DNA of 64,000 bases from Naegleria gruberi (GCA_000004985.1 GG738926.1), one strand, 5' to 3'; positions 1,566 through 45,007 are shown, numbered from the stretch's first letter. Program-made: numbers and translations. The notes: a model not told the origin generated them from the letters alone.

Positions 1566-2950
1566 TTTGGAGTGATGGTTGTTATTATGGTTTAATCCCA
1601 ACGACTATGGTTGTTGTCATAATTGGTATTGGTTCACGAATGAACAGTAACACCCGAATAATTTAGTTGTGAAAATAATTGACAGACAGGCAAGGCAAAA
1701 TAGGTTGATTTCGTTAAGACTTATGGTGTGAAAATCTTCTACTTACAAGTTGATGAACTGCAAACAAGTTAGAGGAGGTGAGTAGTTGAGATTGTCAATA
1801 CAATCGAGTTGATGATTTTTCTTTTGGATTTTCTGCTAGAAGATCGTGAAATGCTTCTCATCGTATGTCCCATCACATAGACAGATATTCTCCATTCTCT
1901 TTATTGTGAAGGACCCAGTGACCAATCATGCAATCATTCGAGTTAGCAAATGCATTATCACTTGTCGCACCACAGGGCATCACCAAAGAAGAATCTACAA
2001 ATTGCTTTGGTTATGCTTTACCATCAAGTCAAAGAGAGAAATGCTAACCAATGAAAGCAACCTTTCGAAGTAGAAATAATCGAGTAGGTGAAGTAATGAG
2101 CAAGTATCTGATTCTTCATCATCGGAAAGAAATGCGCACCTTAAATTACAAGCCTTGACTGGAAGAAGCCTATTCAGGTACCTCCATTAATGGCTCTTCT
2201 TTTCTGGATTCATTATTATTGTAAAGTAAATATCAATTCATTTGTTGTTGTTATTGTAGTAGAGTTGATGTAAGGAAGAAAAAAGTAAATATTGATATTT
2301 TGTTGAGTTGGTTGTTTTCATCATCAAGTAACAGATTTTACAAAGATTGCAAGAAAGGAGATGAAGTGCTCTAGTAGATAACGTTATGATTTGTTTTCTC
2401 ATTTGCCTTCCAAACTAGATAGCTAAGATAAGAGGTTGGTGCAATTCCGATTCCACCACAATAAAAATTCACCACCATATTCACTTCATGATTTGACTCT
2501 GCTTTTTTAATATTTTTTAAGTCTTAACAATTTCTATTTTTCTAACAGAAATTTACAGTTGGCGGCAAAATTCAACAAAAAAATTATTCATATTTAATGA
2601 TAAATTAGATATTTAGATCTTCAAAAATTAGATATTACAGGGTTTACGTAACTACAAGTATTTTGATTGAACAAAGATTTAATACAATCCAATGTTCTCA
2701 TCCAATAACTTGTTGTTACTCCCGAATAGACTCTTGTCGATCTGACTTCATGCAGGCTAAACGAACAAGCCTATCCGAAGAAGGATGAAATTGTGAATAA
2801 GGCCAAAATCGAACGTTGCCAATGAATGGCTCGACGAGGAAACTGTGATAATGCTTTTCCTAATAACCTGATTCGTACATTGACAACTTGTTTCTTGGTG
2901 ATTGTTGACGTCCTCTCCTGCCAGAAAAACACACAAAAAAAACGAGCAAA

Positions 2951-5900
2951 ATGAGATCTCACAACATCATTGGCTGTTTTTTATTTACCCTGCTATTTAT
3001 TATGATTTTTGGCAGCTGGGTTTCCAATGCCGCTGTATCAATAGATGTAAATTATAATATCTACCAATTAGTTGCCTCTTTCTACAATATCAGATCTATG
3101 GACTTTGACAAGCAAAATAATATCCTGTACATTGTCGGCGCTAATAACAAGGTTGTAAAATATACTGCTGCAAGTGGTACGACTGAATATGATGCATCAG
3201 CATATACTCCTTATGGCATTGCTGTCAATTCTACAAGTGCCTATTTTTCAGTATTTAATCCAGCTTCATTAAAAAAGTGGGACGGAGCTGTAGGAACCTC
3301 ATCTTATCATCTCATTATGCCAGGTTCAGTTTCTACATCAGGTTCAGATGATATAGTAGCAAATTCTTCATTGACGACGAAGCCGAAATATATGAGAATA
3401 TCATCAACCACAGGTGATTTATACTTTACGGAAGCATGCAGAGTGAGAAAAATATCAAATGGTATGGTTCGTGCTGTTGCAGGTAAAACTACTTGTACTT
3501 CCTCATCAGGAGATGGTGGTTCAGCCACAAATGCAGAATTTAATGGAGCTCCATATTATATTGCCTTAACACCAGAAGATGATTTACTTGTCATGGATAA
3601 TGTAAATAGACTGAGAAAAGTTAGCAATGGCACAATTACTACAATTCTATCACCTACCTCTTGTAGAGGTCTTGCTGTCGGTACTAATGGAGATATTTAC
3701 ATAATAGGTAAGTAATTGGATAAGAGCAAATTTCAATAATTATTATGTAGATGATCAAGTAGTTAGTAAGGTGAGGAATGGAGTTTCAACCACTATTGCT
3801 GGTGGTGGTGGAACTTCAACGAGCTCTTTTTCCTCAAATGATCCTCTATCATATGGTTTTGCTTATGCAGAACTCAGTGATATTGTCGTTGGTGTGAATA
3901 ATAGTCTTTATTTTGTTGCTGATCAGAAGTTATTCAAATTAGAACCTTATTGCAGTTCAGGTTATGTACTTTCACCTGATTATACTATTTGCTATCCTGT
4001 CTGCTTTAATACAGTAGCAACATCTCAATCAGTGTGCTCTAATTCAAATGGTACCTGTATTGCTCCTGATACATGTTCTTGCAAAGCTGGTTATACTGGT
4101 TCCAAATGTGAAATTCCAATCTGTTACGGATTACTCTCCAATGACACAGCCAATGCTTGCAGTGGAAGAGGATCTTGTGTAGCAAAGGACACTTGTGTCT
4201 GTCAACCAAATTATTCTGGACTTGCTTGTAATATCACTACCTGTTCTTCAATTTCTAGTACCAGTGCAAATGTTTGCTCTAGAAGAGGGTCATGCACTGC
4301 CTATAATACTTGTACTTGTTCGCAAAATTATTATTATGGAACAGATTGTCAAAATACTTACTGTTATTCAATTTCCTCTACTGATTCAAGTGTTTGTAGT
4401 GGACATGGTAACTGCTTAGATTATAATCAATGTTCTTGTTCTTCAAAATGGTATGGTTCCTATTGTAACATCACAGAATGCTTTTCTATGTTAAGTAACT
4501 CTTCAAATGTTTGTTCAGGTGCTGGTACTTGTAATTTGCCAAATAATTGTACTTGTAATGCTGGATATAATGGAACTAATTGTGAAAACTTTGATTGTTT
4601 CGGAGTGTCTGTGAATAGTGGCCAAAGTGCATGTCAACACAATGGAACATGCTCAGGACCTGGAGCTTGCTCTTGCTTGCCAACATACTATGGAAAAATT
4701 TGTGAAATATCAACTTGTTATGGTATATTGAGCAATTACTCTAGTGTTTGTTCAAGTCATGGAACCTGCACAATGTTGAATACTTGTGAATGCAGCCAAA
4801 ATTATTATGGAAATAATTGCAGCTTCCCTATTTGTTATGGAATAACATATGATGATACTAGTGTATGTTCTGCTCGCGGAAAATGTATTGGCGGAAATAA
4901 TTGTAAATGTAATAATGGTTATACTGGAGCTAATTGCGAGCTCAATATTTGTTATGGTGTTAACTCTGACCAATCTAATGTTTGCTCTTCACGTGGTTCA
5001 TGTGGTGCACCTGATTCATGTCAATGTACTAATGGATACAGAGGTCCAAATTGTCAATATGTTGAAATGATAATGGACGCCAAAGCGGCAGTTTTATCTA
5101 CAGCAGTCTCCAACGTAATAGCTTCCTATGCTCCTAAAACAGCAACATCTTGCAGTTCTATTTTCTCCTCAAAGGATTTGACATATCTTGGCTCCTCGGA
5201 AACTGTCAGATGTATTTGGAATCAAAACACATTCAAAATTTATTTAGGCTACAGACACTTTGTTTATGATAATATGACCATGGATATCTTTGGTAATGGC
5301 ATGAATTTCACTTTGCAAGTAGTCTTGACAAAGGCCATACAAGATAGTGCCAGTGCTTCTATTTCCATATTACCTCAACTATCTAAGGTACCAAAAACAG
5401 CAATTATTGTTAAATCTTACTCACCATTTGTTTTCCAAGCTTTTAGAAATACTTCAATTGCTTGGTCTAACTCAGGTAATACCGATATCTCTACATTGCT
5501 TTCAGGAATGAGCAACAAACCAGTGGTAGTCATTCCTTCTACAGAAATAACCTCAGCTTCAACCAAATTTTCCTTAAATGTAACAGGTAAAAACTGGATT
5601 GGTGCCACTTCAACTAGTGCAAAAGTTGATATTGATTATACTGCAGCCTATCCATACTTTGAATTAGTATCGGAGACAAGTGGTAGTCAATTTACTTGTT
5701 CTGGTTTTGACTGTATTATTGAAGTTAATCCGTATGTTACACCAACTCCTACAGTCTATTTTGATGTACCATTCAATGCTCTCAATAGTGGTTCTGGAGA
5801 TTATGTAATTAGATTTTTGAATAGAGTTGGCTCTACCATTCTAAACAGTTACTATGAGGGTTCAATGAAACTTCAAACAACCTCTAGTGCCTTAACCTAT

Positions 5901-8900
5901 ACAATGTCCTACACTGGCTTTGAAGAAGTGCCAATCGTGTTGCTCAATACTGAAAAACAATACTATGGAAACAAACTCACAATTACTGCTTCTTTTATTG
6001 ACCCGATGGTTGAATATTTGTTGAGTAGTAATAGTATTAGTGTTTCATGGTTTTGTTTTAGAGGTACTTCAAAGACTGGTCCTTTTTCTGCCTATGACTG
6101 TACTTCTCAAACTAAGGAATTAATCATTGGAGAATCTAACCTTATTGAAGGATACCATCAATTCCAATTCACAGCCACTTTGACAAATTCAAAAATCACA
6201 TCCGTTACCAAAACAGCAATTGTGCAAGTTGTTAAAACAAATATTCCAGATATTCTCTTTGACTCTGTTCCTCCAGTTTATCCATCATCAAGAAACTTGG
6301 TATTGAATGCAGTTATTTCTTCTTCCACGCAAATCGGTAGCGTTGTGTGGCAAGTAACCAAGGGTAATTTACTCAATGAGAATATTCTTAGTCAATCAAG
6401 TACTCTCTCATTGGATGGATACAATATCAAATCAACTTTGGTTATTGACAAGTCTTATTTATTACAAGGTGATTCTTATACATTCACTGTTACTGCTTCC
6501 AATGGTATTGGCTCTTCAACTGCAGCTGTTTCAACTGTTATTGATGTAGCTCCAAGAATTGCTTGTCAAGCCTATGACGCAGCCATAACCAATTCCGTTA
6601 TCTATGCTTACTCTAGTGATGTGGTAATTGATTGTGCTTCACTCTCTGACTACTCAATTGCTTCCTATCATGTCGATATATATGCCAACTCAACCAGGGT
6701 AATGACAGTATCTAAAACAATGAAAAAGACTTTTATTACAAAGGTACCATACGGTCCAAATGGAAATATCAGACTGGATGTACGAGCTGTAAACAAGATT
6801 GGATCTATTTCATCTGCTTCTATTGATCTCAAGGTTTCTCTTAAAAATACTGATAACACCCTCGCTGGAAGAATTGGATTTGCTAGTTCTGAATATGAAA
6901 GCAACAAAGCAAGCTTTACAAGATTAGAAAGTGTTGTTACTATGCATTCTTTATTGTTACTTATTATTCAACAAAATTCTGTTAGTGAATTTGCCAGTAT
7001 AGACTCTACAGCCAAAACTACTCTCACCACCTTGATAACCAATATGTTAACTACTTTGAGTGGTCTGAAGAGTATTAGTTACAACGCAGATGACAAATTA
7101 GCTCCTGTTTTTATTCCATTTGCAAATGATGCTTACAGGTTACTTGCTGTTATTTCTCCAACTACAGTGGCTTCCAATGCTGATCTACTCACTTGGGTTA
7201 AATTCTTCATAACGTCATTCAATGATTACAAGACATATTATAGATCTACAGTTGTACCTACTATTTACGACTCTAAACACTTGACAGAAATTGATTCCTT
7301 GATAGGTATTGGCGCAAAGTATATTAGTGATAGTAGTTTCAGTCCATTATATAAGGAAACAGCTATTATTTCCAAATTGATTACTGACGTTACCAATTCC
7401 ACAACAACGACAACCTCCACCATCGTGGATTCCAGTGGTACGGAGACAAGATTTGATATTGTTGACAGAATTCAACAACTGAATGCCAAGACAATTACAT
7501 TCGCTAATTATCCTTCAATTTCTATTTCCTTCCCATCAGATTTCTACTCACAACTCGGTGTTGAAAATTCAGGATCAGGAGTAACCCTCACTTCTGCTGT
7601 TTCAACCTCTAAATATTCCCAACTAGTAAGCCCTTCTGTTGATATTTCTCTTTCTACCTCTTCAGACGCTGTTATTTCTGTGAGTGGATTGCAAGGAAAT
7701 TTGATTCAAATCAATTTTGGCACCTTATCACAACCTAAAGCTAACTTTACCAGTTACAATTATACTTGCAGATTCTTGAATACTACCTCATCACAATGGA
7801 GTCAGTCAGGAGTGTCAAGCTCTATTTCCATTTTGTCAGATGATGGCCAAACTGTCACCTTTTCTCTTTCATGTTTAACTTCTCACTTGACTTCTTTCGG
7901 AGTTGTTTCTGCTATCATCCCTCCAACATCACAATCTAAAACAGTAACAACAGATAATACTGGTGTTGTTGTTGGTGCTGTTTTGGGTACACTCTTGCCA
8001 TTGATTTTGATAGCTGTTATTGTTGTCGTAGTGGTGATAATTGTAATTATTTTATACAAGAGAAAGAAATCTCTCGACTCATCACAAGTTCAAAATGTTG
8101 AATTGGTCAATAAGAATGTTTCAAGTGTTCATATTAGTGACTTCCCTTCAGAAGAAAGCACTCACTTTAAGCAATTGGTTAGTGTATCTTCTGGATCTAC
8201 TAATTCTGATCCACTTGCAAGATATGCTGATATGGTAAAGATTGGACAAGGCGCATTCGGAAGTGTGTTCAAAGGTGTTGATACAAAGCAAGCAGGAAAG
8301 TTGAAGGCCATCAAGGTTATTAGATTTAATTCTGTTGGTGAATTGAACAATATGCTCAAAGAAGGAACTATGCTCATGAACATTGATCACCCACATATTC
8401 TAAAAGTCAACGAGTTTATTATTGACAAAGATAACATTCTCTGTATTGACACAGATTTCTGCGAAGATGGTGATTTGACCAAGCTTACTCTTTCTGCAGA
8501 GCCAATCCCAGAACCAATCATCAAACAAGTAATTTATCAAATGTGTTCTGCTTTGGCCTTTATTCACAACAAGCTCAAGATTATTCACAGAGATGTTAAA
8601 CCACACAACATTTTCTTGAAAGAATTGACAGATTTTTCAGTTCAAACAGTTTTGGCTGACTTTGGTCTTGCTAAACAAGATCAAAACAACAGCATGAATT
8701 CATATGCTGGTACACCACTTTGTAAGTTTTTATTTTTAATTATTTAATTAACAACCAATTAAATAGACATGAGTCCAGAACTTGCCCTTGGAGGTAAATA
8801 TAACTATAATACTGACACTTGGTCTCTTGGTGTTGTAGCCTATCAATTAATGACTAAAGATATCACAACTGCTCTAAGTCATTTGTGCTTAACAGGAGAT

Positions 8901-22887: not shown

Positions 22888-25800
22888 ATGAAACTATTAA
22901 ACTTGTTTATTTTTCTAATATTATTTCCCACACTAATTTATTCATCATCCGCAGAGGATACGAGAAATTATTCCAGCTCATCCATTAATAATTCGAATAA
23001 TTTTCCTTCATCCTCTTTGAAAACTAATGTTGTTAACTATTCGAAAGGAATTAATTTACAAATAATTTATTACATTAATTCTGATGATGTCAAATATCAG
23101 AATACAACTTGTCAAGACGAAAGTCATCCATGTTCAGATATGAACCAAGTGATCTTGGCAGCAAATACGAAACTATTCGAAATATTTCATGAAAATGATC
23201 AAACTAAATTAGATTCTTTTACAATGATTGTCATGATTGATTCGAAATTGGAATGTAACAAACTGCTCTTTGATTTTTCAAATTATACGAAACGATTCGA
23301 AATGAGGTGGAAAGGATACGAAAATGGTTTATTCTCTGCTTGTCTAAATAGTTTAGATGAAAATTCCATTTTAGATGCTTTCACTGTTGAGAATGGAAAG
23401 ATTTCAGGCGAATTGAATAATAGATTAGGTATCAAGAATTTGGAAATTCGAAACTGTCACGATGGTGGAATGATTTACTTTTATACTAAAATAGAAAATT
23501 TGCTGATTGCTGACAGTTTCTTTCATGAAGATACTGAAATAACTGAGATTACAAATGTACGAGTGGAAAATACGCAATTGGATGATTTTGAAATTGTTTC
23601 GAATGGAGCAAGTGTTGAAATTTCAAATTCTAAAATTCAAGGAATTGTTGATTTGCAGAATTTTAAATCATTTTCTATTCGAAACTCAATTTGGAAAAAT
23701 AACCGAGTTCATGAGGATTATTCATCAACATTTAATTTAGGACAAGATGTTTCATTTGATAATGTAACAACTAATGCTAAAATTGTGTTTATTTCAATCA
23801 AGTCAATCAAGATGAATGGGCTAATTGTACACAATTATGGAAACGGATATTTCTTGTATCAAATGATACGAGTTTCTCATTTCTATCTAAGCAACAGTTC
23901 GTTTGTGGGAAATTTCGTGCTCAACAACTATTTACTCTCCTTGCAAATAGTTGAATCTATACAAATTGAAAATTGTACAGTTTCTAATAATGTTGGAGGT
24001 TTCATCATGGTAACAGATGCTACTTTGATAATGGGACAGGTGAATATACGAATTAGTAAGAGTGTATTTCAATCCAACGAGATGCTGTCAGATATTGCTC
24101 TAATTGACATTGTGGATCAAACAAGAGAGATGTATTTTATCACAGTTGACCATTGTAAATTTTTGGAAAATACAGGAGAATCCACTTTACACATTGATGG
24201 AGGACTTGCCCAAATTTCCAATTCAGACTTCTACTTTAATATTGCAAACGAACATGGTACTGCATACTTGAATTGCTATGTTACAATTTCAAACTCTAAA
24301 TTCATCGCTAATCAAGCCAAGTTAGGAGGAGCCATTTACATTGGTCCTGCTGGAAATATTGATGCATCTCAAACAATTGATTTTACTTGTGATAATAATT
24401 GGGCAACCTACGCTGGAGGATGCATTTATTCAGAAAATTTGGATTTTTCAAAATTGAAACGCATGAATGGAACTAATATTGCTAAATATTATGGAAATGA
24501 TGTGGCCACACCTATTGTGAGTCTGGATGCTACATTTGATGAGGTAGATTCTAATGGAAATATTGAGGTTTACCCAGGTCAAGCATTCCAAATTAATTTT
24601 TTCCCAAGAGACAAGTTCAATCAGAGCACCTCTTATTTATTGAATCAATATTTGTTTATCAATTCAGAAAAAGGTCATTTTACAATCTCTCAGAATTTTT
24701 TAGATGGAATCCATTCTATTCCAGTAGTTTTGCAAATATTTCCAATTGACGACTACAACCCATCATTGCCACCACTTGTAATATTGATTTCTTCAAAAAT
24801 TGAAATCAAAATTCCTGTAAATATTCTCCCATGTCCAGATAGTTCTTTCCTGAAATTATCTCAAAATGGACATTACTGTGAACAAATTCCATTAGCAGCG
24901 ATTCTGTCATCTGTAATTTTGGGAATTATTTTGATAACCATTATATTGGCAGCATTAATAGTGATAGCTAGGAAATTATTGAAATTGAGAAAACAGGAAC
25001 GTGCTGAAAAGAAAATGGAGCTATTGTTCAAAGATAAGGAATTTATATTCGAAACAGAACAAGCACCTCTATTACTTTCTAATACCATCAACAGTAGTGA
25101 TTCAGGTGAAAGTAGATCAATAATTGGAAACAGGCAACAATACATCATTCCAATTTCTGAAATTAATATTTTGAAAAGAATAGGAGAAGGTGGAATGGGT
25201 GTCGTATATCACGCGAAGTGGAATCGAACTGATGTTGCCATCAAACAATTGAAAACAGATTCCAATGATGAAGAATTCGAAAATGAAGCAATTTTAATGA
25301 GCTCACTTCGACATCCATGTATTGTGAGCTGTTTTGGAGTTTCTCTGACAACCAATGGAAAATATATGATTGTAGAATATTTGGAAAATGGAAGTCTAGA
25401 AAAGGCAATTTATAATTCAAAGATGGGAAGAGCAATTTTGAGATTTGAAACCAAGTTGAAAATATTAACTGATGTTGCCAAAGGATTAGTTTATTTACAT
25501 TCAATCAAACCTCATAGAATTATTCATAGGTATGTTTACTACTTTTATTGGAATAGATATTAATTATGGAATAGAGATTTGAAACCAGGAAATTTATTAC
25601 TCGATAAGAATATGAATGCAAAAGTTGGGGATTTTGGATTGAGCAAAATTGTTTCGAATAATTCTGCAACAATGACAGCAAATGTAGGAACTTTACTTTA
25701 CATGGTAAGTCTAGATAATTTCACAAATTGAATTAAATTGTTATCAATTTAGGCGCCAGTAAGTAATTTCGAAATTTAATTTATTAAAATTTCGAATATT

Positions 25801-26217
25801 TTACAATAGGAATTACTTTCGAATGATCACAAAGGTCAAAGTACAAAAGTGGACGTTTATTCATTTGGAATTATTATGTGGGAAATTTTATTCGAAGAAT
25901 CACCATTTTCAAATGAAATTGATGGTTTCACTAATGTTTTCCAAATATTGAAGAAAGTTACAAAAGGTCATCGACCACCCTTACTATTCGAAACTAGTGC
26001 TTTATTGGAGGCAGATAGAAATCAGAAAGTTGATGAATGGATTGATCATAACTTTACAAAGAAACAAATCGAAACTATTGGAAAGGAAAATATTTCTAAA
26101 TTATATGAATCATATATAGAAATTATGGAACACTGTTGGAATCATGACGCATCTAAAAGACCTGAATTTATTGAAATTACAGATCAATTAGAAACCTTGC
26201 AATCGAACTTTGCTTAA
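22888..26217 (+). CDS. Receptor protein kinase (TKL-like) with a beta-helix-like ectodomain; 4 exons including a 6-nt microexon
   Basis: Exons are 22888..25529, 25575..25704, 25753..25758 and 25810..26217. The introns are 25530..25574 (GTATGT..AG), 25705..25752 and 25759..25809 (both GTAAGT..AG). It has a signal peptide and about 640 aa of NxS/T-rich repeats reminiscent of a parallel beta-helix. The TM helix is [25 protein letters not shown]. The kinase domain reads [21 protein letters not shown]|[21 protein letters not shown]|AP|ELL. Confidence 0.75.
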
Positions 26218-36702: not shown

Positions 36703-37403
36703 AGCACATTAATTTGAGAACCTTAATGGATATTGAGGAATCAAAACAAAGTTTTCGTTGAATTCAACAACACACACATTGATGAGGGATTGACAGCTTT
36801 ATCGGATATGATGTGGATGGAATGTTGGTTGTACTTTTCCGGTAGAAGGAATTAATTATTCTTGAAGGATATTGTTAATACGGTGGTTGTCGCTTCTTGT
36901 TGAACGTAACTGGAGTGTTTAAATAATGTTGTTTTTCAAAAGATGAATCACACTCATCCACTAATTATTGTTTTGTTACCATCATCATTAAAATTCATCT
37001 CGATGCATTAACGATATTTTTTAAAATATTAAAAAAATCTTCACAATACGTCCACATATTTATTATTAATATCATCTTTGTTGTATCATCATGTAACAGA
37101 TCTACAGAAAAATTAAGGAAGAGGGATTAGAATTTTGAGAGATTCGCTATGGGTCAATCATCATGAACAGAATCTTTTGGCTCATTCGGATTTCCAACAT
37201 CAAGCATCATAGCTTTGCCTCAATAACAATGAAGAAAAGAGAGTACAAAAAAAGAAGTTTAAAGGTCCTTATGCCGCCTAATACCTCCGACTAACTAGGA
37301 AAATTAGAAAATACTAGATTAACTCTTCAAGCAACCTGGAACAATCAATCAAACAACCTAACAAAAAAAAAGATAATCACAGTTGACCTGCTCATCATCT
37401 AGA

Positions 37404-40400
37404 ATGCGAACAATTTTTGTGATATGCATTGCTGTTGTGGCATGGTTTATTCTTCTCTTTCTAACAAGTGAAATCCACTGTCAAACTGTCAAGTATTCAT
37501 TCACTGTTTATCAGAAGGATTTGTCAGGGCCATATTGTGCAGCAAAATCTCCAAATAGTGATGCTGTATACATGTCTGAATATAGTGGACATCGTGTGAA
37601 GAAGAAATCCTATCTAGGTCTTGTTGTTATTGCAGGAACAGGATATGAGGGTTTTAATGGTGACATTTTGGCCAAACAGGCCAAACTGGATAATCCTGGA
37701 GGTGTTCTAGAATATAACAATGAGCTGTATATTATGGACTATGGAAATAATAGAGTGAGAAAGATTAACAGTGAAGGTGTTCTGGTAACAATTGCTGGAA
37801 CTGGTACACGATCTTCAGCAGGTGACAGTAAGTTTTATTTCACACAATTGAATAGACATTCTTTCTTCTTGGCATCATAATCTCACACATTAAAGATGGT
37901 GCAGCTACTTCAGCATCTCTCAATGGACCTTGGGGTATTCATATACCAAGCAATGGAGATATATACATTACAGAATATGTCGGAAATAAGATAAGAAAGA
38001 TTAGTGCATCTGATAATAAGATTTACCTGGGTAAGTGTTTTCAAAGATTATTGTTTATTCATTCCGAAATAATTAGTGGCTGGAACAGGATCATATGATT
38101 TTTCTGGAGATGGTGGCAATGCTGTTAGTGCAAAATTGAAGAGCCCTTGGAGTGTCTTTGTAAATGCAATTGGTGAAATATTTATTGCTGATACGGATAA
38201 TGACAGAATTAGAAAAATTGCAACAAATGGAATTATAACAACTATTGCTGGCTCTGGATCGAGTACTAGTGATGGAGTTCTAGCAACTACAGCTTCTTTG
38301 AAAAAACCAACCTCTGTCTTTATTTCACCAGCAAATGAACTATTCATTGCAGGTATGTGTTTTCACAATTTCATTAATGAATTTTAACATGTCTATTAGA
38401 GGCTGATGGTGGTAGAATCAGAAAGGTCGATCTGTCAACAATGAAAATTTACACAGTTACTAGTTCACTGAATTATCCAACATTTGCATTTGTTGCTGAA
38501 AATAGTGATCTATATATTACAGAGAAAAACAACAACCAAATCAGACTTGGAACAGCTTATTGTGATAGTGGTTATCAAATTAATTCGAATGGAACTATTT
38601 GTAATCCAGTGTGTAATTCACAAATTGGAAGAGCTGGATGCAGTAATCATGGATCATGTACTAGTCCTAATACTTGTACATGTGATACTGGTTATACATT
38701 ATCTGACTGTTCTCAACCTATTTGTTATGGAAAATATGGAAGTACTGCTTGTAGTGGAGCAAATCAAGGAACTTGCTCTGCTCCAGATACTTGTCAATGT
38801 AAGAATGGATTTTCTGGAAGTGATTGTAGTGTTTATTATTGTGGAGGGGTTGTTGCAAGCTCAGCAGGTGTCTGTTCAGGTAAAGGAACATGCTCTGCTC
38901 CAGAAACTTGTTCTTGCCAAACAGATTACGTTGGATCAGTATGTCAATATCCTGTGTGTAACAGCATTCCTTCAAATAACCCAAATGTTTGCAGTGGTGG
39001 TGGTACATGTACTTCTCCAAATTCATGCCAATGCTTTACAAACTATTCAGGAACTCAATGTCAGTACACTACTTGTTCTGGAATAGATAGTACCAATTCG
39101 AATGTGTGCTCTGGTAGAGGAAGTTGTGCAAAATATAATAATTGCACATGCACAGCCAACTTCTTTGGCTCAAATTGTGAGCTCACTCAATGTTATGGAA
39201 TTATTTCAAATTCAGCTTCCACATGCGCTTCACATGGTAGATGTGATGGCTACAATAAGTGTACATGTGATTCTAATTATTTTGGATTGGACTGTAGTGT
39301 AACAAGTTGTTATGGAGTGTGGAGTAATACTTCTAGTGTTTGTACTGCACCAAACAGAGGTACTTGCAATTCCTACAATAATTGTACCTGTACAAACTCG
39401 TATTATGGAACTCAATGTCAAGATTATGATTGCTTTGGAATTAACAAATCTAATAGCTCAGTATGTTCTGGTAAAGGAGCATGTTCTGCACCAAATACTT
39501 GTTTGTGCTCTGATTCTAATTACTCTGGTTCTAATTGTGATGCAGCTGTGTGTTATGGAATTTCAGCAAATGACTCTAGAGTTTGTTCTGGATCAAGAGG
39601 TGCCTGTAACTCTCCAAACACTTGCTCATGTTTTTCAAATTATTTTGGACCTCAATGTCAATATACACAATGTTATGGTATTGACAGTTCCAACACAACT
39701 CATGTTTGTTCTGGTAGAGGTACTTGTTCTGATTTCAATAAGTGTGTTTGTAAAGATGGATACTATGGATCCAATTGTCAACTCAGCAAGTGTTTTGGAG
39801 TTTTATCAAATAGCTCAAATGTTTGCTCAGGTCACGGAACTTGTTCGGATACAGATACTTGTAATTGTGATTCTAATTATTCAGGTAAAAATTGTGATAT
39901 TACATCATGTTATGGAACCTCAAGTACAAATCCACTGGCATGTTCATCTCATGGCTTTTGCTCGTCCTATAATAATTGCACCTGTTCATCAAACTATTAC
40001 AGCCAACAATGTCAAGAGTTCAATTGTTTTGGTGTGAATAAGGCATCTACAAGTGTATGTTCTGGTCATGGTACTTGTTCAGATATTGATACATGCTCCT
40101 GTACAGGAAACTGGATTGGAGGAAATTGTAATCTCACAACCTGTAATGGTGTTTGGAATTATAATTCATCTGTTTGTTCTGGAAACGGTGTTTGCTCATC
40201 TCTGAATAATTGTACATGTAATGTAGGATATTATGGTGCTAATTGTGATTCCTTTGATTGTTTTGGATCTGTATTTACAAACGAAGGTATTTGTGCAAAC
40301 AATGGTTCTTGTACAGGTCCTGGTGTTTGTTCCTGTATTGATGGATATTCTGGATCTCGCTGCCAATATCCTATTTGTTATGGCATTAGTGGTGGTAGCT

Positions 40401-43400
40401 CAAGTGTCTGTTCTGGAAATGGACAATGTATTGATAGGAATATATGTTCGTGCAGTGCTGGATGGACTGAAAACACTTGTAATGTGACAACATGTTCTGG
40501 TAAAAGAAGTGATAATTCATTAGTTTGCAGCTCTCAAGGTTCATGTGTGGGACCAGATAATTGTTATTGTAACAAAGGTTACACTGGACCTAATTGTGAA
40601 TTTAATGTCTGTTATGGAAAGAGTCAGAATGATTCTTCAGTTTGTTTAGGCAGAGGTAAATGTTTGAAACCAGGCGAATGTACTTGTAATACTGGATTTA
40701 GAGGTACAGAATGTCAATATTATCAAATTGATTTTGATGAGAAATTGGCCACTCTCAAGCCAACCCTAACTTCAGTTCTACAATATTCATACCTTTTCAA
40801 TGGAACATGTGAAACCTTATTCGAAAGTAGTGATTTACCAATAATTGGTGAATCTCCAATATGTTTATGGGATAGTAGCAAGATGATTATTTATTTAGGT
40901 TTTGGAACTCATCTTCAAACTGGCAATTTACTAAGAGTGAAGAATAGCAACTTAGCATTCTTTGTTGATACAAGCAACTCTCTTTCCTATACTGGATCTG
41001 GTATTACGCTCAAGAAATTGATGACAAATGTTCCAACAAGTAATCCTTTACCTCTTAGACCTATTGTTGATAGCAATTTCCAATCCTACACCAATTTCTC
41101 AAGTTTAGTTTGGTCATGTATTAGTTGTTCTACAAGTTTGAATGATTACTTGAAATCTCAACAACGTGAATATCTCTACATTCCTCCATCCTACTTGAAA
41201 TCTCTATCAGCATTATATCTGCAATTAGCAGTCTCAAATTTTGCTTCTAATTCCAAAGTTGCAAGTCTTTCATTTACGTTTTCTCAATCAGCTGCTCCTA
41301 ATCTTGATTTAATTACTGACCTGAATAGTGATTCACAAATTTCTTGCACAGGATATGACTGTATTATAGAAACAGAACCAATTGGTTATGGAAACAATGC
41401 AGGATTATTCTTAGGTTCATACCCATCAATCAAATACAATGTCTACCTGTCCAGATTTTTCTACACAGACAGCAGTGGCATTTTGGGAAGTGGATCTACT
41501 ACTGGAAGTGTCTTGCTATTGGCCAAACATACACAATCCACAACTTCAAAAGATTTCTTCATTCAATATTCATTCAATGCCTATGAAAATAAGCTTCCTG
41601 TTGTTATTTCAGCAACAAATCCTGTCTTTTCTCCTTCATCTTTCATTAGATTTAAGGCAACAATCTTCAATCCAATGGTATTCGTGAAAACCGTTCAAGA
41701 TACATATTATCTTTGGAAACTCTTCAAATTTGACGAAACAGGAAAAGCTAAACAAATGAGCACTGAAATTTACATTGATCTGAATTATGATGAAGTAGTT
41801 GTACAGAGAGAATTGGAGGCAGGTACATATTTAGTGAGTCTTAATGCAGTAGCTGCTTATGGATCTACTCTCATGAATACTACCTTTACTGTATTGAACA
41901 CAACAGATAGATTGGCTTCCATCAGTTTTTCTCCTGTGCCAACAATAGTTTCAATTTCAGAAGATTTGACAATTACTGCAACAATTAATGGAACCATAAC
42001 ATCATTTGAATGGATTCAAATTTCTGGAAGGATAAAACCATTGTGCTCTTTGCAAAAAGTAACAACACAACCAAGTGAAAATATTACACAAAGCGAATTG
42101 ACTATAACCAGAGATTGTCTTTTTGAAGGTGAAATTTATATATTCAAGGTTGTTGCTAACAATTCAAATGGCATTTCGTCTTCAGCTGAAATTCAAACTC
42201 AAACAGATATCTCACCAAGTATTCATTGTGATTTTTATTCTACATCTGAAGATGGCTCTTTCGTTGCATTGGACAGCACCTTGCTAATGACATGTAGAAA
42301 TGGAGCTAAGGATACTATCAAATCTTACACAGTTGAAATTCATTATAATGGAGAAAGAAAGTTTATTGTTTCCAATACTCAAAAGAGAAACCTCTATTTT
42401 AGAATGCCTTATCTAATTGAAGGAAGCCAATTGGTTGTCAGAGGTCTCAATTTTTATAATACTGAAGTCATTTACAGAAAGAATTTAACATCAACTCTGA
42501 CTTCTACTGACAAGGTTCAACTCTTTATTGATGGTTATAATAGTATTACAACTAGTGAAACAACAAGTTATTTTGGAGCTATTAATTCTTTAAATTCTCT
42601 CTTGACATTATTTGAATACCAACAATTTGATTCGCTTGAAAATAAGAACTCTCTCCAAACTACTTTGAAATCCATGCTCAGCCTAATCTCTAATCTGAGA
42701 GCTACTGGTGTCAATGTTGATGACAAACTCACTGCTCTCTTACTTCCTCCAGTGTATAGAATTCACAAATACTTGGATAGTATTAATGGAACTAGATCAA
42801 GTGATGATTGGAGAGTTGATGATCTCCTTTCTTGGACATCTTACTTTACTGAGTCTATTCTCAACACCCTTCAATACTATTACTCAACTCAATGGAAATT
42901 CCTTATTGATCAAATTCATTTGAATGAATTGGATGAACTTATCGAACTTGGATCGAGTATGAATTCTGAAAAATTTGTTCTCGTTCAAGTTCAATATGAA
43001 TTATTAACAGATAGCTTGAATGGAGTCGCATCTAAGAAATCACAAACACAGCTCTCTAATGGTATCTTGCTAAGAGAAAAATTGGACTCTGTCGATTCAT
43101 TGAGAAGTCACATTATTAACTTGTACTATTCCAACACTAATGTTTCGATTCAATTCCCATCTGATGTTGCTGATACTTTAGCTTTTGGAGATACAACCAC
43201 AGATAATTCACTCAATTCATTTGTTAAAGTTTCCAAGACTACAAACTCAAAGATTATTGGTGTCATGACAAGTGTCAATATTCAAACTCAAAAATTCAAA
43301 GAATTGGAAATCCAAAACCTTACCACCTCCATCAATATTGCATTCACAGGCTCTCAATATCCTTCCTCCAATGTAACTTGCAAATATTACAATTCCTCAT

Positions 43401-44760
43401 CTCAAGAATGGCTCACTAATGGTGTTCAAACTTTGATTTCTTCTTCCAATAATTTGGTTACCATTTCTTGCTTGACAAATCACCTTACAACATTTGCAGT
43501 TTTCAAGAATGATATTATTTACATTCCACCTACAAATTCTACTACTAATGGCGTACAAACTTCTGATCCAGCTCTTGCAATTGCTCTTGGAATTATTCTT
43601 CCACTTTTGGCAATTGCAATAATTATTGTAATAATTATCATTGTTGTGATTCTGGTATTGAGATATAGAAAGAAGAAACTTTCCTCTGAAGTTTCCAATA
43701 CTTCAGCCATTGAACTGAGAAATGAAAATAAGAGAGGATTATTCGATACTGACATTTCAGACTTCCCTTCAGAAGCAAGTGTCTATTTCAAACATTTGAA
43801 TTCTTCCTCAATGGCTTCAACTGTTTCTTCCACATCTTCTTCTAATGATCCATTCTCTCGTTACAAGGACATGGTTAAAATTGGAGAAGGTGCTTTTGGT
43901 TCAGTCTTTAAAGTTATTGACACTAAAAATAACAATAAGGTGAAAGCCATCAAAGTTATTCGATACAAATCAGTGGAAGAATTAAACTCCATGATGAAAG
44001 AAGGAACTCAATTAATGAACATTAGCCATCCAAACATTCTCAAAGTGAATGATTTCTTTGTGGAAAAGGACAATTTACTATGTATTGACATGGATTTCTA
44101 TCCACAAGGTGATTTGAGTACCTTAATCAACCAACAGGAAGATTGTAAAGAAGTACACATCAAGCAAATTATTTATCAAATGTGTCATGCTTTGCATTTC
44201 ATTCACAATGATTTGAAATTAATTCACAGGTAAGTTTTTTAAGTTTTTTTATGGAATTTCAACAACAAATTCAATTCACAGAGATGTCAAACCTTCAAAT
44301 ATTTTCATCAAGGTATTAAACGGAAATGTCATCCATACAGTATTGGCAGACTTTGGTTTAGCAAAGGATAATAAGAATTCAGCAAGTATGAGCTTTGCTG
44401 GTACTCCACTCTGTAAGTATTTTCATAACTGTCAAAATTCATAAACATCAAATAGACATGAGCCCAGAATTGGCATTAGGAGGTAAATATTATGCCAACA
44501 CAGATGAATACTCTCTCGGAGTGACTGTCTATCAATTAATTACCAAAGACACCATGACTGCCATCAGTCACTTGTACATGTCAAAAGACGCAAAAGAAGT
44601 ACAAACTCTTACACGAAAACGTTTGAAGGAGAGTGGTGATTATTCTGATAGATTAATCGATATCTGTCTACAAATGTTGGAAAAGGATAACTGTGCACGT
44701 CCATACGCTCAAGATATTTTGGAAAATTCATACTTTAATGATATTAGAAAGATTAGATAA
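37404..44760 (+). CDS. Receptor Ser/Thr protein kinase with an NHL-repeat + about 18 tenascin-type EGF-repeat ectodomain (paralog of 2951..9125), 6 exons
   Basis: Exons are 37404..37827, 37896..38030, 38077..38352, 38400..44229, 44282..44412 and 44456..44760. The introns start GTAAGT, GTAAGT, GTATGT, GTAAGT, GTAAGT. It has a signal peptide (MRTIFVICIAVVAWFILLFLTSEIHC) and NHL repeats (YIMDYGNNRVRKINSEGV, YITEYVGNKIRKISAS, FIADTDNDRIRKIATNG). About 18 EGF repeats, a long S/T-rich ectodomain, a TM helix (LAIALGIILPLLAIAIIIVIIIIVVILVL) and a kinase domain (IGEGAFGSV, AIKVI, IHR|DVKPSN, DFGLAK, GTPL-Y-MSPE) follow. Confidence 0.8.
38600..40715. repeat. Tandem array of about 18 tenascin-type EGF repeat units (period about 93-105 nt) within the second receptor kinase
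   Basis: The reiterated motif is C(Y/F)G..S.N.S.VCSG.G.C.....C.C...Y.G..C. The spurious His/Val/Leu-rich ORFs in the track (38484..39086, 39312..40037 and others) are alternate-frame products of this repeat. Confidence 0.75.
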
Positions 44761-45007
44761 CATGTTATTGAATAAACCAACACAATATTAGTAATATTTG
44801 TCATGATATCAAAATTTGCCAGGCTGTGTTGTGTTAAAACATCAACAATATTGTTGATGACATTTTGACGGTTGAAAGATATCATCTCACACACAAAACA
44901 TATCATCACGAAATACAACAATTATCATCATCACAATACAACAACAATCAACAACTAAATTATATTTAAAAAGCTATTTTATTCTTCTGCACAAGTTTGC
45001 ATCAAAA

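Follow-up and report, generated by a model that had tools for sequence, protein, structure and literature searches.

Background

The closest described analogue of the element reported here is the class of ultra-short (1–15 nucleotides (nt)) constitutive coding microexons of plants and green algae (Yu et al. 2022, PMC8831610). Plant and algal microexons are pervasively misannotated, most being missing from reference annotations, and there are gene copies and lineages that have lost one or both of the flanking introns; G-rich and T-rich intronic enhancers have been described for the plant exons, and in Chlamydomonas Pkinase and PK_Tyr_Ser-Thr lead the list of domains with microexons (PMC8831610). 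Here we analyse a 64-kb stretch of DNA (the window, meaning the whole stretch), for which protein searches gave Naegleria gruberi as the source, and within it a candidate exon of 6 nt, GCGCCA, in a gene for a receptor-like kinase of the TKL type. As in the plant and algal cases, the hexamer would be a tiny internal coding exon with its residues inside a conserved domain. The Naegleria case differs in several ways: the host is a heterolobosean amoeba, the exon is predicted from the DNA sequence, the introns beside it are close to the minimum size (48 and 51 nt), and the sole sign of conservation is that paralogues use the two intron positions separately.

Three other systems invite comparison. 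Those microexons of Caenorhabditis elegans that have very short flanking introns (about 49–58 nt) and do not depend on PRP-40 (Choudhary et al. 2021, PMC8378409) share the layout of a tiny exon between two introns of about 50 nt and the proposed intron-definition logic, but they are mostly neuronal and alternatively spliced, whereas nothing points to regulation in the Naegleria gene. The neuronal microexons of vertebrates and insects (3–27 nt, dependent on SRRM4/eMIC) are also in-frame multiples of three that add a few residues to folded domains; that programme, however, is tissue-regulated and uses long introns with UGC-type enhancers and animal-specific factors, none of which is seen or would be expected in Naegleria. 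Recursive splice sites, or zero-length exons (YAG/GTAAGT), resemble this locus in that a 3′ splice site almost abuts a strong 5′ splice site, but here six coding bases separate the two. Removal of the upstream intron creates the junction ATG/GCGCCA, which regenerates no GT donor, and the hexamer therefore cannot be removed recursively. Tiny coding exons are an already known kind of feature, of which this is an added example and not surprising in kind; our literature search returned no report of microexons in Naegleria.

A candidate 6-nt exon in the kinase domain

We consider it probable, at roughly 0.85, that GCGCCA is a genuine and mainly constitutive coding exon. It is bounded by the acceptor and the donor of separate introns (TAG/GCGCCA/GTAAGT), a layout that the first-pass annotation of this DNA had described and for which coordinates, intron lengths, GTAAGT..TAG signals and the hexamer itself were all exact. 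The gene model that includes it has four exons (2642, 130, 6 and 408 nt) and three introns (45, 48 and 51 nt) and encodes 1061 amino acids (Table 1). From N to C terminus the predicted protein comprises a signal-peptide-like N-terminus, an ectodomain of ~660 residues, one transmembrane helix and a TKL-type kinase with the motifs GEGGMG, VAIK, HRDLKPGN, DFG, APE, DVYSFG and RP. The whole protein matches the Pfam families Pkinase (E = 5e-52) and PK_Tyr_Ser-Thr (E = 7e-50); the microexon form passes the gathering threshold (PF00069/PF07714), its PF00069 match of 182.0 bits covering profile positions 3–258 of 263.

Both introns beside the hexamer match U2-type GT–AG introns in three respects: their splice signals are canonical, their lengths fall within the range of the window and their removal restores the reading frame. 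Retention of either leads to a stop, after VSLDNFTN in the first and after VSNFEI in the second. The hexamer is 83% G+C (5 of 6 bases) against 21% and 16% in the flanking introns. Branch-point candidates, judged by eye, are TTAA[AC]- and TTAT-like, and TTAAC-like sequences occur in other local introns. A scan of the window for short introns (GT[AT][AT]GT...AG joining two open frames of at least 50 codons, with the frame interrupted on retention) gave 21 candidates; 13 of these are 41–68 nt long, and 10 of the 13 begin with GTAAGT, most ending in TAG or CAG. On this window-level estimate the 48- and 51-nt introns are indistinguishable from the local 41–68-nt class. Genome-wide figures for intron length or consensus in N. 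gruberi were not found in the literature searched.

To compare splice patterns, we listed all GT..AG introns across positions 25690–25830, singly and in pairs with a minimum of 25 nt per intron, and kept those whose product was in frame and free of stops up to the natural stop codon. Only two patterns survive. The first, with two introns and the 6-nt exon, reads ...GTLLYMAPELLSNDH... (YMAPELL) and scores 380.0 bits against a hidden Markov model (HMM) built from six full-length relatives, 182.0 against Pkinase and 176.0 against PK_Tyr_Ser-Thr; the second, with a single 105-nt intron, reads ...GTLLYMELLSNDH... (YMELL, as the first-pass annotation had foreseen for skipping) and scores 365.7, 164.8 and 165.4 bits. 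The form with the microexon is thus ahead by 14.3 bits (family HMM), 17.2 bits (Pkinase) and 10.6 bits (PK_Tyr_Ser-Thr), and it alone yields a full kinase domain with normal spacing in the activation segment (GTLLYM-AP-ELL).

The homologues agree with that spacing. Ala-Pro occupies the two alignment columns before the invariant Glu; the pattern G-x3-[YWFRQ]-x-XX-E fits 112 of the 120 best homologues, XX being AP in 96, SP in 6 and rarely anything else, and a two-residue gap before the Glu was seen in none of the 120. The proposal that the exon supplies the AP of YMAPE is supported by these comparisons and by the use of both intron positions in relatives (see below). The motif had also been called universally conserved: this holds for the two-residue spacing and the Glu, and overstates the case for Ala-Pro itself in this Naegleria subfamily, where relatives show AR, AN, SN or PN in these columns.

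The arrangement is well beyond chance. The motif AG-GCNCCN-GTAAGT (AGGCNCCNGTAAGT) occurs once in the window, both strands considered, and in none of 100 dinucleotide-preserving shuffles. Among 200,000 simulated random 105-nt introns of matched base composition, ~2% contained some AG-N6-GT that left each half 35 nt or longer, 18 (9e-5) encoded a dipeptide known from this kinase family and none encoded Ala-Pro.

Several points weigh against a constitutive 6-nt exon. The skipped form, with its 105-nt intron, is also in frame, free of stops and of acceptable length; the two donors are identical, and some skipping is mechanistically possible; and the Ala-Pro dipeptide is, as noted, not invariant. 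Orthologue searches with the whole protein and with the ectodomain alone returned only the gene's own public model, and the protein collection searched held no transcript-derived protein that spans the junction. Both the order of intron removal and recognition by intron definition are extrapolated from other organisms.

Table 1. The receptor-like kinase gene of the window: exons, introns, strings diagnostic of its possible splice forms, and the equivalent intron positions in related genes. A slash marks a splice junction.
Feature	Position	Strand	Length	Details
Gene model	22888–26217	+	1061 aa	ATG at 22888, stop TAA at 26215–26217
Exon 1	22888–25529	+	2642 nt	ATG to kinase N-lobe in one continuous open reading frame; ends ...HRIIH-R, phase 2; signal-peptide-like start, ectodomain, transmembrane helix (residues ~667–692), juxtamembrane region, Pfam kinase match from residue 760
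Intron 1	25530–25574	+	45 nt	GTATGT..TAG, phase 2 within the Arg codon of HRDLKPGN
Exon 2	25575–25704	+	130 nt	DLKPGN...DFG...GTLLYM; ends ...GGAACTTTACTTTACATG (...ACTTTACTTTACATG)
Intron at position A (YM/AP)	25705–25752	+	48 nt	GTAAGT...TTTAG, phase 0; GTAAGTCTAGATAATTTCACAAATTGAATTAAATTGTTATCAATTTAG
Microexon	25753–25758	+	6 nt	GCGCCA, Ala925-Pro926 (AP of YMAPE)
Intron at position B (AP/E)	25759–25809	+	51 nt	GTAAGT...AATAG, phase 0; GTAAGTAATTTCGAAATTTAATTTATTAAAATTTCGAATATTTTACAATAG; holds a predicted 10-bp hairpin
Last exon	25810–26217	+	408 nt	Kinase C-lobe, ELLSNDH...DVYSFG...CW..RP...SNFA and stop; opens GAATTACTTTCGAATGATCAC (ELLSNDH), GAATTACTTTCG...
Predicted junction, microexon included				CTTTACATGGCGCCAGAATTACTT; shorter strings diagnostic of inclusion TTACATGGCGCCAGAATTACTT, ATGGCGCCAGAA
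Predicted junction, microexon skipped				CTTTACATGGAATTACTT; reads ...TTACATG/GAATTACTT...
Retention, first intron				ACATGGTAAGTCTAG
Retention, second intron				GCGCCAGTAAGTAAT
One intron removed				ATGGCGCCAGTAAGT or TTTAGGCGCCAGAATT
L005, N. lovaniensis C9374_013523			61 nt	Position A only; TATATG/GTAGGT...AAAAG/GCACCTGAA
L002, N. fowleri FDP41_009158			123 nt	Position B only; YMAR/E
L006, N. lovaniensis C9374_002741			68 nt	Position B only; YMSN/E
L003, metagenome			46 nt	Position B only; YIAP/E
L087, metagenome			43 nt	Position B only; YMPN/E
L001, L004, L088				Neither A nor B intron

Intron positions in related kinase genes

We compared the DNA of eight related kinase genes, in which the YMAPE columns align without gaps (L001–L006, L087 and L088; Table 1). 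Because each position is used alone in related genes, both A and B are genuine intron sites in this kinase family; against these eight loci, the window gene is the sole sampled member that carries both introns. In a rough neighbour-joining tree of 124 columns, A- and B-bearing genes fall in both subclades (support for the subclade of the window gene is weak, at 51%). Such a tree would fit an old state with both introns and later differential loss, and it leaves room for parallel gain. The two-intron state may be ancestral, with paralogues whose introns lie 6 nt apart arising by differential loss, not by sliding or parallel gain. A shared origin of the two introns by duplication was considered and rejected for lack of evidence: when the pair were aligned, globally and locally, to one another, to the third intron of the gene and to the relatives' introns at A and B, the scores were no better than those of shuffles (p = 0.13–0.92).

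A second near-coincident pair of intron positions lies upstream in the same domain. The phase-2 intron of the window gene at HR/DLKPGN (intron 1), whose excision restores HRDLKPGN and which the public gene model splices too, has a phase-0 counterpart 7 nt further on in L005, at HRDL/KPGN (~3634–3702); the motif is uninterrupted in L001–L004 and L006, the loci to which this comparison extended besides L005. In L087 (~1775–1925), which has an ectodomain of EGF repeats, the position-B intron is followed by a 62-nt exon and then by a short intron inside DVFS/FG. L003, L087 and L088 all derive from one metagenome (JGI sample 3300002220) with ~40% G+C. The juxtamembrane segments of L003 and L088 are nearly identical (LVDRRFIF.DDSLNAPLLSPKSNEHVKFTIPIEDIEIVKRIGEGANG) and the sequences diverge after them, and an RGS gene lies downstream on the opposite strand both in L088 and in the N. 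fowleri locus L002. A metagenome scan with over-general patterns (HRDLKPGN, DVYSFG) yielded 80 loci, all at most 40% identical to the query, and no close relatives.

A proposed order of splicing

With both introns near the local modal size, each would be recognized across the intron, with no need for definition of the exon itself. The first-pass annotation had held that so small an exon needs precise exon definition; this is unlikely, as introns of 48 and 51 nt would be expected to follow intron definition by analogy with other organisms (PMC8378409, PMC8831610). Microexons are argued to be too small for exon definition and to be spliced through intron definition, and worm microexons between introns of ~49–58 nt do not need PRP-40 (PMC8378409). 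Because only 6 nt separate the acceptor of the first intron from the donor of the second, simultaneous occupancy of these two sites is sterically unlikely and the two introns would be removed one by one. Once the first had been excised, the hexamer would sit in a long exon and the remaining intron would be an ordinary one. In plants, the introns around microexons are removed consecutively, the downstream one more often first (PMC8831610). We would expect the Naegleria gene to behave likewise.

The resulting mRNA would encode the P+1 loop and APE segment, the anchor of the activation segment. The Glu of the APE motif forms a salt bridge with the Arg of kinase subdomain XI. The introns of the gene, at 45, 48 and 51 nt, all have lengths divisible by three, and retention of any one of them brings in an in-frame stop. 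A transcript that kept one would therefore be caught by surveillance and not translated through, a logic reportedly set out by Jaillon et al. (2008).

The predicted RNA structure of the region is a lead only. The fold of positions 25695–25820, a single sequence, is more stable than shuffles (z = −2.76). In its predicted stem, one strand consists of the last bases of exon 2 and the first donor, and the other of the first acceptor, the hexamer and the second donor; the dot-bracket of the fold pairs 25703–25716 with 25744–25758. The second intron is predicted to form a hairpin of its own, of 10 bp, from copies of a repeated AATTTCGAA: AAUUUCGAAA(U)/(A)UUUCGAAU. In a 206-nt context (z = −1.92) the hairpin is retained, and so is the core of the stem, where the region of the first donor meets the first acceptor and the hexamer.

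Unlikely alternatives: skipping, a single intron or no splicing

The alternative that fares best accepts the microexon and has it alternatively used, the donor at 25705 being joined to the acceptor at 25809 in a substantial or regulated fraction of transcripts. The skipped kinase, YMELL without Ala-Pro, would probably be catalytically impaired, which would turn the exon into an on/off or dominant-negative switch. We regard such use as unlikely. The absence of the two-residue gap from all 120 homologues speaks against it. In its favour, skipping keeps the frame and adds no stop, an intron of 105 nt would not be out of range among local candidates (with examples of 92–104 nt), both donors read GTAAGT and both acceptors TAG. 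Choice of site could be modulated by the predicted stem in which the hexamer and first acceptor pair with the region of the first donor, but the z-scores given above are modest and rest on a single sequence. Exon skipping is detected generally in N. gruberi transcriptomes (PMC6142364), yet organisms with short introns mostly retain introns and seldom skip exons (PMC6142364, PMC8831610). An in-frame skipped isoform is possible as a minor or regulated product. The fuller proposal, that the hexamer is a splicing-controlled switch in a unicellular excavate, is slightly less probable still; with inclusion the receptor kinase would be active, with skipping it would lose two residues of its P+1 loop in frame and hence be inactive or dominant-negative, and the predicted stem might tune which sites are used.

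It is very improbable that there is no microexon and that 25705–25809 is one 105-nt intron, with the internal TAG-GCGCCA-GTAAGT fortuitous or a relic and the protein reading YMELL. Such a product is in frame, free of stops and, at 164.8 bits, still above the Pfam thresholds; it nevertheless falls 10–17 bits below the microexon form, no homologue has its two-residue gap, both sub-intron positions are occupied in relatives, and fewer than 1 in 200,000 random introns would be expected to hold a GC-rich hexamer that encodes exactly this dipeptide between perfect splice signals. Least probable of all is that the public model is correct, with no splicing here and the C-lobe frame a decaying remnant of a truncated or pseudo-kinase, for although this agrees with the deposited annotation, the downstream open frame of 135 codons (25810–26214) is intact, its invariant C-lobe residues (DVYSFG, CW..RP) align with those of relatives, and the internal start of the same model, 112 residues into the open frame, suggests automatic mis-modelling.

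The public gene model and its relatives

The only close match to the protein in our search is a deposited 'predicted protein [Naegleria gruberi]' with 100% identity. This model (P0001, 820 amino acids) begins at Met113, skipping 22888–23223 and with it the signal-peptide-like N-terminus. It runs on into the 48-nt intron and stops there, and therefore lacks both the hexamer and the entire kinase C-lobe, the final third of the kinase; its Pkinase match of 123.5 bits ends at profile position 164 of 263. The expectation that gene finders would easily miss an exon of this size is borne out by this model. Two other N. gruberi kinases among the matches are deposited as partial models, one of them ending exactly at ...YMAPE.

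The ectodomain has no match in Pfam even at E = 5. It is weakly similar (24–28% identity, tblastn E values of 1e-9 to 1e-11) to the DNA upstream of the related N. fowleri and N. lovaniensis kinase genes, and the annotated products of two such ectodomain-like upstream regions (L002 and L005) contain faint Chlam_PMP matches. Relatives in N. lovaniensis and N. fowleri look to have been annotated as two genes, one for the ectodomain and one for the kinase, 44–120 nt apart (L001 at ~2830–3060, L005 at ~2850–3060 and L002 at ~2900–3060). In L001 the two models lie in one continuous frame, and in L005 the kinase model begins in the middle of the transmembrane helix. L001, L002 and L005 are probably single receptor-kinase genes.

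Other genes in the window

Two further kinase genes on the plus strand of the window are paralogues of each other and belong to a different family (...GTPLYMSPELALGGKY...). Each has a short intron with GTAAGT..AATAG ends (8722–8766, 45 nt; 44413–44455, 43 nt) that splits the Tyr codon of LYMSPE in phase 1 and lies 5 nt upstream of where position A would fall. The kinases of N. gruberi thus seem to have intron positions clustered near their APE motif.

A very large gene on the plus strand (37400–44900) starts with NHL-type repeats, has an open frame of ~1,940 codons and short introns (for example 37828–37895, 38031–38076 and 38353–38399), and appears to end in a kinase domain at ~44.3–44.9 kb. 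A match to YAG-N6-GTAAGT at 37819–37833 was examined as a second microexon and rejected, its CAG lying inside a continuous NHL-repeat exon. A scan for exons of at most 30 nt by continuity of the reading frame gave matches only in one long open frame (39.3–40.5 kb), where any in-frame deletion passes, and these were discarded as artefacts; the scan is blind to GCGCCA itself, exon 2 being below its 50-codon requirement.

Implications

The significance of the locus is mainly that of an annotation fix, with a modest point on intron evolution. The public model needs correction, as the gene most likely encodes a receptor-like kinase of 1061 amino acids. Because some N. gruberi kinase models are partial and some N. 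fowleri and N. lovaniensis models are split, Naegleria kinome counts and domain architectures may be systematically affected by mis-modelling of this kind. A very small exon, 6 nt between introns of ~50 nt in a deep-branching protist, would be a natural substrate for asking how tightly spliceosomal introns can pack under intron definition. A gene that carries both introns indicates that the two sites 6 nt apart are those of distinct introns, which bears on the scoring of near-coincident intron positions when the gain, loss and sliding of introns are studied.

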